DNA of 56,721 bases from a virus (Duplodnaviria > Caudoviricetes), in IMG/VR virus record IMGVR_UViG_3300027819_000014, positions 1-56,721 of that record. The stretch is one strand, 5' to 3'. The first letter of the stretch is position 1, and every line of letters begins with the position of its first letter. Position numbers and translations under genes: made by a program. The notes below the pieces were generated by a model. It made no database searches and was not told where the DNA came from. It worked only from the letters and a program-made list of their open reading frames with translations. Positions 28,018 to 40,095 of this stretch are shown piece after piece.

Positions 28018-28506
28018 ATGCGTACAACTATCCGGGAACTGAGTCAGAAGGGTAAATCACTTCAACGTCGTGTAGCCAAATTAGCTGATGATTCTGATGG
28101 TGTGTGGCGTACAGTTAGAGGTCGGCGAATATTTATTGGTAAAGGTGAAAGTTTTGATGACGCGTTGAAGAAAAGTTTGGGTGGTAAAAAGTCTGGGGTA
28201 TCCCGTGATGATAAAAAGCAACAAGACGTAGAGGCTAAACATAAACCAGAAGATAGCCGAAAGTGGGAGTCAGCGCGCAAACCCGGTGAACATAAATCGG
28301 GTGATCCAATCCCGATGGATGAGCGTAAAGCATTCGGTAAAGGTTTGAAGGTTGGAGATACCTTTGATCATGGAATACACGGTAGTTTAGCTGGAAAATG
28401 GAAGGTCACCTCCAGGGACGGCGATTATTTAAAGATTCGTAATACAAAGACCGGGAAGGTTGAAGATATCCATGACAGTAATGCTTCTCCGGCCTTTTAT
28501 AAGTAA
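28018..28506 (+). CDS. Putative head-cargo protein 1 (GVWRTxxGR motif + beta-barrel-like tail)
   Basis: N-terminus paralogous to 34392..34826. Confidence 0.7.
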   Translation: MRTTIRELSQKGKSLQRRVAKLADDSDGVWRTVRGRRIFIGKGESFDDALKKSLGGKKSGVSRDDKKQQDVEAKHKPEDSRKWESARKPGEHKSGDPIPMDERKAFGKGLKVGDTFDHGIHGSLAGKWKVTSRDGDYLKIRNTKTGKVEDIHDSNASPAFYK

Positions 28507-28508
28507 TT

Positions 28509-37220: not shown

Positions 37221-40095
37221 TTCTGAACAATTAAGTCATGGGGTTTCTTTGCCACGTGGATATTGGCGTAAATATTTGGGTTCGGAAGATCTAGTTGTCA
37301 AAGAGCATCACCAACCAGGAGGTCATGATCAGGATACACACGGAAATCGGCATACTTTGATGAATCAACGATTCAAGACTTGGTCACAAGTAAATAAAGC
37401 TGCCGATAAGGTTAGATTAGAAACCGGATTTGATGTTGAAGTTCTTCACGATTCTAGTGGTGATCCTGGTCGGAAGTATTTAATTGAGCGCGTACCGGGG
37501 AAGAGCATTCAATCTCGGCAGTCCGGAGAGAGTGATAAGGATTATTTGGTACGGATTATTAAAGGTGATTATGCGCAGAAAGATATTCCCACCACCATCG
37601 ACTACGCTCAGATCAAGAATGATCTCGACGCACTGGAGGCTAAGTTCAAAGATGAACTCCGCACCGTGCTCACCCAATCCCGAGATGCGGTAATGGCCAC
37701 GGTTAAGCGGAGTAAGGATTTGGCCAAGCTGCAAAAGGATATCGCCATCCCCTACGAGAAAGGGATACAGGACGTGATCCTGGCCGCGATGCAACGCGCG
37801 CTCACACGCGGGAGCGCAGACGCGAGTAAGGAGATCGGACGGGCGCGGAAGGATGTTAAAAAGAATTCAATTCAATCTTATGCCAAGACTCCCACCTTCA
37901 CCCCACAAGCCGCAATCAAATGGCTCCGGGCCAAAGCGTTCTGGGTCGCGGATGTATTGTTAGGCGGATTGACTGAGGATATCCGTTTGGCGATTATCAA
38001 TGGCCTTAAGTTTGGTACGCCGACCAGTGAGATCATTACTGCTATAGCCCAAACGTATATCCCATATTTAGGTGACCCGACGGCGGTGAAGGATGGCGAG
38101 TTGCCCACCGCAGCCAGACTGGAAACCGTGGTGAGGACAAACGTGGTCGAGGCGTACAATCAAGGTAGAATTGCTACGTTCATTCGGCCAGATATGATGC
38201 CGTTCTTGGATGGGATTCGGTACTCTGCCATTCTTGATTCACGTACGACACCAGTCTGTCGGTACCTACACGAGCGAATTTTTAGGCCAGAGGATATAAC
38301 GATAACAGGATTAATTCCGCCAAATCATTTTAATTGTTTCATTAGTGGTCTCACAGGTGTGTTTACTGCAAAAGGATGGAAGAGTATTTGTAAAATAGAT
38401 CGTGGGGATTTGGTGTTGACACATAAAGGGCGTTTTCGCCCTGTTACTTTTGTTCATCATAAACAATCCCCTCAGGTGTATCGTGGGAATGTGGTGCGTG
38501 TGAAGTTGCAGTTTCGGTCTTTGCGGAAAACTTTGGTTTGCACCCCAGACCACCCCGTGCTAACCAGCAGTGGCTGGAAAGCAGCCAAGGAGATAACCAC
38601 ATCTGATTCTGTCATTGCTCTTACTAAACCATGTGCAGGATGTTCAACACCTTTACTTCATGTTTCGGGTAATGGCGAAGAAGTAAAATATTGTAGCATT
38701 AAATGTCAAGTACGTTTTGAATATCGAACCGGCGCTCGTGATAGATTTGCTATCACAGCTGCTGCAAATGCTGCAACACGTGAAAAAGCTGTGAACGGTG
38801 ATCACGTATTTCAAAGACCGGATGTTCGAGAAAAATCTTCGCTCGCACGGTTTGCTAGTAAGAAATTTTGGCATTCTATAACTGTTGGGCGTCGTGGGGA
38901 ACTTAATCCCATGTCCAAATCGAGAAACCCCGAGTCAGCTATAAAAAACGGTAAGAGATTGGTGAAGAGGTGGCGTGACAATCCAGAATTACATCCGAAT
39001 CACTCTATGATTAACGTATCAAAACGGCAACGTAGGATATATGACCTTGCTCGTGGTTTGTTTTTGGGTGGGGTGAAGCTAGAGCATCCCATTCGTACTC
39101 AGAAGTCAGTTAGATATGCTGATATTGCCTTGTTGAAACATAAAGTAGTAATCGAGTACGATGGGGGACATTGGCATACAAACTTGGATAAAGACACGTT
39201 GCGTGATACGGAATTGATGGCTGCTGGTTGGCAGGTTCTTCATTATAGGGACAAGATGCCAACCAGCAGCGAACTAAGGTCCGATGTGAATAGGTTGTTA
39301 AAGAACCATCGGAAAGAATATACATTCGGAGAAGTTACGGTGACCGACGTTGAAGTTAGACCCCTCCGCAGAAGTGTTTTGTTATATAACATTTCCGTTT
39401 TAGACGACGAATCTTACATAGTCGGCTGTGGAGGAGCGGTCGTTCACAATTGTCGTTCGCTTGTCGTTCCAGTTTCAGTAGGTGAATTGTCGCATGCGCC
39501 GGATTTCAAAGTGGATCCGAAGGTGTACATCACGGACGAGGAGATACTACACGCACAGTCACTGGCGGATGCGAAGTTTTTGGCGCAGGAAGATGACGTG
39601 CACGATCATGCTATTGACGATGAGACCGGAGTCTGGCGCACCGTCCGTGGCCGCAAGGTATTTATCAAAGATGGTGAGACACCGACCCAAGCCGTAAAGA
39701 GATCAATCGCAGAGCGCTCAGCCAAAGCCAAACATTCCCACATTCCCGCGACCAAAGAGCGCCAACTCAAAGCTGCTAAGTATGAAGAAGCCGTAGCCAA
39801 GTTGATCAACGGCAAGAATTTGGACGACCACGAGCCGTTCGATGTAATAGCAGGCAAGCATGCGGTAGAAGTGAAAACACTTCTCAGTGGCAAGAATCCG
39901 AAGCTGACCATGCATCCGGATTCTTTGGCACGTAAAAATACATTCCTGAAGAAAAAAGAGATGATCGGGCACACGGTGGCGATAGACGCACGTGGCAAGA
40001 CACCTGTGTACTATTACCGTGAAGGGGTAGGGAGTTTCAGGCTGGACAATATGCGGACGGTTAAGGGTGCGGAATTGAAAGGGTTGATGAAATGA
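37207..40095 (+). CDS. MuF/SPP1 gp7-like head morphogenesis protein with intein and C-terminal PD-(D/E)XK-like domain
   Basis: RLETVVRTN..AYNQGR, YSAILDSRTT.VC, PPNHFN|CRS; tail PFDV..AVEVKT. Confidence 0.9.
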   Translation: MINLSSEQLSHGVSLPRGYWRKYLGSEDLVVKEHHQPGGHDQDTHGNRHTLMNQRFKTWSQVNKAADKVRLETGFDVEVLHDSSGDPGRKYLIERVPGKSIQSRQSGESDKDYLVRIIKGDYAQKDIPTTIDYAQIKNDLDALEAKFKDELRTVLTQSRDAVMATVKRSKDLAKLQKDIAIPYEKGIQDVILAAMQRALTRGSADASKEIGRARKDVKKNSIQSYAKTPTFTPQAAIKWLRAKAFWVADVLLGGLTEDIRLAIINGLKFGTPTSEIITAIAQTYIPYLGDPTAVKDGELPTAARLETVVRTNVVEAYNQGRIATFIRPDMMPFLDGIRYSAILDSRTTPVCRYLHERIFRPEDITITGLIPPNHFNCFISGLTGVFTAKGWKSICKIDRGDLVLTHKGRFRPVTFVHHKQSPQVYRGNVVRVKLQFRSLRKTLVCTPDHPVLTSSGWKAAKEITTSDSVIALTKPCAGCSTPLLHVSGNGEEVKYCSIKCQVRFEYRTGARDRFAITAAANAATREKAVNGDHVFQRPDVREKSSLARFASKKFWHSITVGRRGELNPMSKSRNPESAIKNGKRLVKRWRDNPELHPNHSMINVSKRQRRIYDLARGLFLGGVKLEHPIRTQKSVRYADIALLKHKVVIEYDGGHWHTNLDKDTLRDTELMAAGWQVLHYRDKMPTSSELRSDVNRLLKNHRKEYTFGEVTVTDVEVRPLRRSVLLYNISVLDDESYIVGCGGAVVHNCRSLVVPVSVGELSHAPDFKVDPKVYITDEEILHAQSLADAKFLAQEDDVHDHAIDDETGVWRTVRGRKVFIKDGETPTQAVKRSIAERSAKAKHSHIPATKERQLKAAKYEEAVAKLINGKNLDDHEPFDVIAGKHAVEVKTLLSGKNPKLTMHPDSLARKNTFLKKKEMIGHTVAIDARGKTPVYYYREGVGSFRLDNMRTVKGAELKGLMK
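38335..39450 (+). mobile_element. Intein (372 aa) with Vsr/DUF559-like endonuclease
   Basis: CFISG start, CTPDHP, LYNISV.DDESY..VHN/C end; YADI..IEYDGGHWH..D..RD..L..GWQVL. Confidence 0.9.

Follow-up and report, generated by a model that had tools for sequence, protein, structure and literature searches.

The capsid targeting sequence (CTS) of phage T4, carried by its internal proteins and by Alt, is a peptide of about ten residues which stands strictly at the N-terminus and is removed by gp21. According to the part of PMC3012670 that deals with the T4 internal proteins, the CTS is the only thing that these proteins have in common, a short conserved peptide carried by diverse injected anti-defence proteins and directing them into the prohead core. 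Two other described groups are close to the locus reported here, namely the polyvalent proteins, which are multi-domain effectors encoded alongside the portal and terminase genes, with 2H, ADP-ribosyltransferase (ART), Zeta-toxin, MuF and portal fusions (Iyer et al. 2017, main text of PMC5512222), and the MuF polymorphic toxins, in which a variable effector is attached C-terminally to MuF (Jamet et al. 2017, PMC5576092). Iyer et al. catalogue globular domains and no junction motif was found in the text of their paper, the supplementary LPD1-40 alignments being outside the scope; the text of Jamet et al. mentions no linker or junction motif either, with its supplement likewise outside the scope. 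Here we analysed the linear IMG/VR virus record IMGVR_UViG_3300027819_000014 (Caudoviricetes; CheckV completeness estimate 49%) over all of its 56,721 nucleotides, hereafter the window, in which an earlier note had proposed that two short peptide motifs, GVWRT[VI]xGRx[IV][FY]I and WxExKHPRxPxGxxGGQF, head interchangeable effector domains and address them to the phage head. Judged from sequence, the modules built around these motifs (GVWRT and KHPR) are under selection, portable and interchangeable, stand before each effector domain and are tied to head-assembly genes and proteins.

The proteins of the window belong to the known polyvalent and MuF-effector proteins (PMC5512222, PMC9503650, PMC5576092), and the apparent novelty lies in two defined junction modules, in how widely they occur and in the fact that one can take the place of the other at a single site. 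The MuF protein of the window has the same layout as the MuF toxins, with the difference that a defined module stands between MuF and the effector, and that the same module heads proteins which have no MuF. Junction motifs are also known from the polymorphic toxins as pre-toxin motifs, where VENN of CdiA and DPxGL of Rhs mark the border of the exchanged C-terminal domains. These motifs are unrelated in sequence and in their secretion systems. Each protein has just one of them, at its last junction, whereas GVWRT and KHPR are found at every junction and at N-termini too. The likeness to the T4 CTS is that one tag serves many cargoes, as several motif-bearing open reading frames (ORFs) are present per phage here. 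The GVWRT module, however, has no sequence similarity to the CTS, is structured and about 34 residues long, is also found internal or repeated and is kept in portal and MuF fusions, and its targeting role is a putative one.

The GVWRT pattern was confirmed in exactly four proteins of the window, all encoded on the + strand (Table 1) and all inside the block of terminase, portal and MuF genes. Its chance expectation in six frames is 1.1e-8, and none of 100 shuffles contained a match. The four copies can be aligned over about 34 residues, beyond the motif, with 10 invariant columns. Their DNA has drifted, with third codon positions only 21-45% alike (near random) and the same codon used at identical residues in only 2-5 of 11-15 cases. 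As the third positions and codons have diverged while the residues were kept, the peptide is under selection and a recent duplication of the DNA is excluded.

To follow the module outside the window, a profile of 36 positions built from six copies (A3) was searched against 1.84 billion cluster representatives, and 1,276 protein clusters were retrieved at E≤1e-3, 242 of them at E≤1e-10. Over 184 instances the consensus reads DEEDGVWRTIxGRRVFIKxGQSLxDAMKxSGKF, and in most cases a linker that is rich in Lys or flexible comes next. W and T never vary, and conservation exceeds 90% at each of G, R, F, I and A. The short xA site which had been said to precede each motif is not general, what is conserved being an acidic run with D/E at -6 to -3 on the 5' side of GVWRT (in the same 184 instances) and Y-A-x-W before KHPR. 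Among the best 150 of the 1,276 hits, the module lies within the first 15 residues in 102, at residues 16-60 in 31 and later in 17; 147 of these proteins begin with M, and 24 carry 2-5 copies spaced by at least 100 residues, the maximum of five per protein being reached in giant proteins. At eight loci an in-frame stop just upstream makes the module necessarily N-terminal, and several motif-bearing ORFs occur per locus. No Pfam-A model was matched by the motif-only proteins even at E≤10, no Pfam LPD model fits the modules, and literature searches with the string GVWRT, and with KHPR plus phage, returned nothing relevant.

Structure prediction with AlphaFold2 (AF2) was carried out for g34392, the small protein encoded directly after the portal, using an alignment of 80 rows. 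In the model, a first helix (residues 2-22) is followed by two strands (26-31 and 34-39) and a second helix (44-50), with a predicted local distance difference test (pLDDT) value of 82-95 per 10-residue block over residues 1-50 and low confidence in the tail. The modelled helix 2-22 is the leader which g34392 has in common with g28018, the corresponding small protein encoded just before the large terminase (TerL). Both share one layout, in which leader helix and GVWRT module (28018-28191 in g28018, 34392-34556 in g34392) are followed by a linker and a small C-terminal domain in g28018, and by a Gly-rich linker and a small β-rich tail in g34392. The hairpin recurs at strands 539-544 and 547-552 in the poor model of the 710-residue polyvalent protein (12 rows, mean pLDDT 44), where only the hairpin and the halves of an Acb1 domain were modelled. 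As modelled, the GVWRT element is a module of about 34 residues made of a β-hairpin and a short helix. Foldseek found no match for the g34392 model in the PDB at E≤0.001, and a look-up of g34392 residues 1-60 in the ESM Atlas gave no usable match. When solved structures were searched with the motif profile, only designed helical repeat proteins matched, via the helix part alone, and they were discarded as spurious. A four-copy complex prediction for g34392 residues 21-58 (alignment A5) scored 0.00 with a mark of 0.42 and counts neither way, its controls not having been run.

The exchange of the two modules is best seen in the 710-residue protein, which is built on an Acb1 2H phosphodiesterase, directed against the cyclic oligonucleotide-based antiphage signalling system (anti-CBASS), split by a nested insert that the earlier note had missed together with the enzyme itself. 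Acb1 (PF23474) was matched with 124.4 bits against a cut-off of 27, and phmmer aligned the protein to 7t26_A at 1.3e-08. 2H enzymes are defined by two H-x-T/S motifs, and MHVTVCYS and HPHITLTY of the window protein align with the same motifs of Acb1 and of the Pam3 portal domain. Both 8hds_A, the Pam3 portal with its C-terminal Acb1-like domain, and 7t26_A (Acb1) align to residues 142-265 and 445-522, and the enzyme is interrupted by residues 266-437, a KHPR-headed insert of 172 residues, whereas it is contiguous in P0152, P0154, P0022 and 8hds_A. Pam3 gp3 (PDB 8hds) thus resembles the window in having an Acb1-like domain attached to a head protein and differs from it in that its two halves adjoin (chain residues 534 and 540). 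Fusions of 2H domains to MuF or portal are noted in the relevant parts of PMC5512222 and PMC9503650.

In an alignment of ten Acb1-bearing relatives, the insertion point in Acb1 holds a KHPR-type header in four (the window, P0153, P0010 and P0020), a GVWRT header in three (P0011, P0012 and P0015) and no insert in three (P0152, P0154 and P0022). The occupant of the slot varies as well, being ART-PolyVal in P0004, ADPrib_exo_Tox in P0012 and a domain with no family match in the window. As the headers are swapped and the inserts differ at one and the same point of Acb1, GVWRT and KHPR are functionally interchangeable, and each moves together with the domain behind it. Acb1 is the only recognised domain of the 710-residue protein; its three other regions, of 124-149 residues and bounded by motifs and homology breaks, match no family. 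At least two effector-type domains in one polypeptide are clear in the close relatives P0004, P0012 and P0154. The names which had been given to the domains behind the motifs were not verified: for the two regions said to be ART-like, there was no Pfam match, comparison by hhalign with an ART-PolyVal alignment of three sequences yielded probabilities of 0.15% and 0.8%, and the two resemble each other in motif only. Nor were the papain-like, PD-(D/E)XK-like and beta-barrel labels borne out, as Pfam was empty for all six post-motif regions and the AF2 tails are of low confidence.

Acb1 fused to the portal is frequent in cultured phages, Acb1-like domains being observed under annotated portal genes of Pseudomonas phiPSA1-like, Rhizobium RHEph-like, Synechococcus and Pam3 phages (records H13-H37). 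The match to these portal-Acb1 records is limited to the Acb1 region (query residues 177-525), with no header motif. A literature search on Acb1 with portal, MuF and packaging yielded, among the matches listed, nothing on packaged Acb1.

The claim of a plug-and-play arrangement of the headed domains finds support in homology breaks, in cassettes which are found both free and fused, and in the header swaps. In BLASTP of the 710-residue protein against the hits, the similarity of nine relatives ends within the module, at residues 561-568, and in 11 alignments the first aligned residue is 539, where the motif begins. The free-standing P0126 (167 residues) resembles the module plus the C-terminal domain of the 710-residue protein (32% identity, residues 539-660), and P0034 (195 residues) corresponds, as a separate protein, to MuF protein residues 791-962 with 74% identity. 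In the portal homologue P0053 (E=3.9e-136) the portal part is extended by a GVWRT module that matches perfectly, and by additional domains. A Pfam scan of 142 hits, which are the best 150 without the eight largest and include three proteins of the window itself, identified MuF in 11, Acb1 in 7, ADPrib_exo_Tox in 7, Zeta toxin in 2 and portal and PBECR1 in 1 each, most having no family. Six of the eight largest were scanned separately (P0005 and P0009 being left out) and families were found in three; among the giants, P0004 combines Zeta toxin, ART-PolyVal, Acb1 and MuF with 3 GVWRT and 4 KHPR copies. Likewise, four of 10 IMG/VR motif ORFs matched families (Zeta toxin, topoisomerase I, ART-PolyVal and LPD1). 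By these comparisons a cassette is a header plus linker plus enzyme domain, which occurs as a free gene by portal or terminase, fused behind portal or MuF, strung with others in giant proteins, or nested within a different domain such as Acb1 here. The motif profile and the survey of accompanying domains, both proposed beforehand, therefore place the two motifs as widespread headers or junctions in polyvalent, head-associated proteins.

The KHPR motif is a second module of the same kind as GVWRT. Both reported copies are present in the window, at 35244 and 35892, but the second is one residue longer, so that the strict pattern fits the first only. The consensus of the module reads YAEWDESKHPRxPxGSxxGGEF. 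It is found in 12 of the best 150 GVWRT proteins, with up to four copies in each, and alone in 13 further viral loci. In 10 of these 13 (L025, L030 and L032 being left out) the KHPR ORFs were scanned with Pfam, which gave three portal fusions, two MuF fusions, two ARTs, one ParB-like protein, one DUF2213 protein and one unassigned ORF. A third recurrent element, LA[YFT]ADxxGxV, was observed before KHPR (before GVWRT in P0010), with 20 matches in 13 of 154 proteins; in the window it lies at 35097-35147 and 35199-35240 on the + strand. A DPxQPR...GGxW variant of KHPR has 10 matches in 8 of the 154 proteins. Besides, runs of three to five consecutive same-strand KHPR ORFs were seen in L022 (1979-12070, 9 copies), L031 (2-9888, 8 copies) and L029 (4996-11192), and these may reflect either split genes or polyvalent arrays of very large size.

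The fourth GVWRT copy stands in the MuF protein, whose MuF domain (PF04233) was matched at residues 258-377 with 54.8 bits against a cut-off of 29.6. The domain is followed by a 372-residue intein, also missed in the earlier note, which runs from CFISGL to VVHN, so that it starts with Cys, ends with HN and has Cys at +1, boundaries which we judge to be those of an intein. In at least 12 MuF homologues, which lack the intein, the alignment passes directly from residue 377 to 748. The 122-residue C-terminal domain behind the module is conserved in P0004, P0005, P0012, P0097 and P0034, and tblastn of this C-terminal cassette against plasmids gave no match. The string HQPGGHDQDTHG, which had been said to head MuF, does occur at 37309, but among 154 proteins only 1 other has anything similar, and by this count it is not a recurrent header. 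The degenerate motif described at the portal C-terminus, AVWVEMEDGQRV, is indeed present at 34330 but is not significant against the motif profile, which over the whole record gave only four matches at E≤0.01, the portal tail not among them. The C-terminal element of the portal recurs in the portal homologue P0053.

The four genes of the window lie in the head-packaging block. At 10 other loci, the ORF scanned upstream of the motif gene encodes a portal in six, TerL in two, a 2H polyvalent protein in one and an unassigned protein in one. These are 10 of 16 mapped motif ORFs, L001 and L002 (relatives of the window), L009, L015 and L016/L017 being left out; L013, L014 and L015 resemble L012, and L013 and L014 were not mapped, while for L007 the second ORF upstream was scanned and not the adjacent 389-residue ORF. 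In the window the + strand order is DUF5681-like protein, HNH/NUMOD3 endonuclease, g28018, TerL, small ORFs, portal, g34392, a 75-residue ORF, the 710-residue protein and MuF, and the late or head location typical of polyvalent proteins is thus seen in the succession TerL, portal, g34392, 710-residue protein and MuF. g28018 matched no Pfam or PHROG family; its homologue holds the same position in the related locus L002, where the order (DUF5681, HNH, small motif protein, TerL) is that of the window. TerL is at most 46% identical to the large terminases of cultured phages, and megablast of the region against phages found no match. A scan of 185,579 species genomes with the strict pattern returned 14 stretches, of which three passed tblastn and one (L019) was convincing. 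tblastn of the 51-residue KHPR segment gave no match at E≤1, a query possibly too short for the threshold, and neither motif is present in the portal, F, G, I and T proteins of Mu.

We tentatively propose that the header acts like the T4 CTS, as a cis-signal that loads the cassettes into the prohead core and marks them for release, the reading which we prefer, though with limited confidence. The header would get each cassette incorporated or held in the portal/MuF/scaffold core of the prohead and would probably also mark the site at which maturation proteolysis frees the cassette, and the enzymes, here Acb1 and further domains, would then be delivered together with the DNA. A header which both docks and marks the cut would explain the N-terminal position, the rule of one per domain and the retention in portal and MuF fusions. 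Entry through a head protein has a precedent in SPP1, where the portal recruits the MuF protein gp7 to the procapsid according to the section of PMC6316719 that treats it. A broader claim, which we regard as rather doubtful, is that with GVWRT and KHPR general and portable cargo headers are seen for the first time in tailed phages other than T4, as small folded tags that suffice by themselves to load any protein into the head via the portal/MuF/scaffold core and to mark it for release. If this were so, the roughly 1,300 carrier clusters would be a catalogue of injected early effectors, mostly of no recognised fold.

Several observations weigh against a CTS-like signal. The modules are well conserved behind portal and MuF and inside the nested insert, where an address tag is redundant, and this points to a need per domain rather than per polypeptide, which a pure address tag does not have. 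In L028 the ORF 2719-6087, a portal-NUDIX fusion, has its KHPR module roughly 27 residues before the stop and no domain behind it. The window, which represents about 49% of the genome, yielded no prohead protease, and tblastn of the module proteins P0039 and P0069 against phages found no cultured carrier. The module is, moreover, near-identical across phages with portals of different PHROG families, and because it is near-identical across unrelated portals, a universal ligand such as DNA fits better than a phage-specific receptor.

Part of this evidence is what one would see of a passive junction or insulator, a self-folding spacer which has no partner and is carried along by each successful shuffling. 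The modules stand at every domain boundary, up to five per protein, with homology breaking there; the two types swap at one site and are kept in fusions and nested inserts, and the hairpin and helix are confidently modelled as a self-contained unit. Such a spacer leaves unexplained the extreme N-terminal placement in single-domain proteins (102 of 150), the fact that W, T, G, R, F, I and A hardly vary among the 184 instances and the restriction to head-module genes, and we consider it unlikely.

The conservation across unrelated portals, in suggesting a universal ligand, agrees with a nucleic-acid tether, in which the basic hairpin-helix and Lys-rich tail would bind DNA non-specifically and the cassette would ride on the packaged genome. 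The core has 3 Arg, 3-4 Lys and exposed aromatics ahead of the Lys-rich tail, and a title cited in PMC6316719 (reference 84) names SPP1 gp7 as a DNA-binding protein. A tether is nevertheless quite improbable in view of the acidic run that precedes the module, of the net charge of only about +2 (counted by hand) of the copies in g34392 and the 710-residue protein, and of KHPR, which is not basic and yet substitutes for GVWRT.

We likewise give little credence to a processing signal only, that is, a docking or recognition element for a prohead protease or a polyvalent peptidase domain that would cut in the head or after injection. One module per domain, the nested ones included, is in line with it, and Iyer et al. 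propose in the main text of PMC5512222 that polyvalent proteins are processed into units. The portal of the window is of the Mu type, and according to the portal section of PMC11915804 the Mu portal lacks its last 124 residues in the virion structure, a probable cut which its authors credit to protease I. A structured module of 34 residues, however, far exceeds usual cleavage sites, the N-terminal copies have just 2-12 residues ahead of them and no protease was found in the window. Finally, chance similarity or a recent intragenomic duplication without function can be taken as refuted, as the 19 identical nucleotides of the g28018 and g34392 leaders, noted earlier and verified here, stand against an expectation of 1e-8, the 1,276 clusters elsewhere and the diverged codons at conserved residues.

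The features of the head-packaging block are collected in Table 1. The homing endonuclease gene is placed between the DUF5681 gene and g28018, and the related locus L002 is alike in this (539-1432). After the MuF gene, an auxiliary block on the + strand (40817-52572) includes 5'-3' deoxyribonucleotidase-like, methyltransferase-like, aminotransferase, B12-binding radical SAM, family-2 glycosyltransferase and radical SAM/SPASM enzymes, which may form a DNA or sugar modification pathway. Further downstream, g53740 (53740-55647, +) encodes a 635-residue coiled-coil protein whose homologues P0037 and P0007 have two GVWRT modules each in N-terminal extensions. ESM Atlas features of g53740 point to Mu protein I (protease/scaffold) with a score of 0.92; its PF10123 search was empty, though the controls of that search also failed to register, and BLASTP against Mu gpI gave E=0.7. 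This suggests, as a lead only, that g53740 is a Mu I-type protease or scaffold.

Table 1. Coordinates of the features in and around the head-packaging block of the window.
Feature	Position	Strand	Evidence or remark
DUF5681-like protein, small-terminase position	26558..27082	+	Pfam DUF5681 26.6 bits (cut-off 27.5); syntenic in L002
HNH/NUMOD3 homing endonuclease	27093..28013	+	NUMOD3 1.1e-21; phrog_655 homing endonuclease 2e-53
g28018, 162 residues, small cargo-type, just 5' of TerL	28018..28506	+	motif at 28099
Large terminase (TerL)	28509..30062	+	Terminase_6N 6.5e-24, Terminase_6C 2.7e-09; phrog_38 9.7e-98
Mu-type portal; C-terminal tail ends in module-like AVWVEMEDGQRVAV (34330-34371)	32800..34395	+	Portal_Mu 1.3e-51
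g34392, 144 residues, small cargo-type; start overlaps portal stop	34392..34826	+	motif at 34467
710-residue polyvalent protein built on Acb1	35088..37220	+	Acb1 3.8e-36 in two stretches; PDB 8hds_A, 7t26_A
LAxADxxGxV element, then KHPR module 1	35199..35300	+	
Domain 1 after KHPR module 1	35301..35672	+	no Pfam family; hhalign against ART-PolyVal probability 0.8%
Acb1 N-terminal half, first H-x-T motif HVTV	35673..35882	+	alignment to Pam3 portal C-terminal domain
KHPR module 2, head of insert nested in Acb1	35883..35951	+	
Inserted domain starting YHGT	35952..36398	+	no Pfam family; hhalign probability 0.15%
Acb1 C-terminal half, second H-x-T motif HITL	36399..36659	+	
GVWRT module 3	36696..36797	+	motif at 36702; homology to nine relatives stops at residues 561-568
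C-terminal domain of 710-residue protein, putative Cys/His motifs by eye	36798..37217	+	no Pfam family; similar to P0126, P0017
962-residue MuF protein, with intein and C-terminal cassette	37207..40095	+	Phage_Mu_F 1.9e-14
Intein, residues 377-748 (372 residues), DUF559-type endonuclease	38335..39450	+	Hint_2 27.0 bits (cut-off 28.4); DUF559 29.3 bits
GVWRT module 4	39622..39726	+	motif at 39628
C-terminal domain of MuF protein, putative D...ExK motif by eye	39727..40092	+	no Pfam or PDB match
86-residue ORF, downstream of MuF gene	40092-40352		

Even as mere junction modules, GVWRT and KHPR are two undescribed and very widespread phage modules which merit family models for annotation. If the headers mark head-delivered cargo, they would provide a sequence handle for finding injected anti-defence enzymes. 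They would then also account for the assembly and reshuffling of polyvalent proteins, and a small tag would be at hand with which foreign proteins could be loaded into the heads of phages outside the T4 system.

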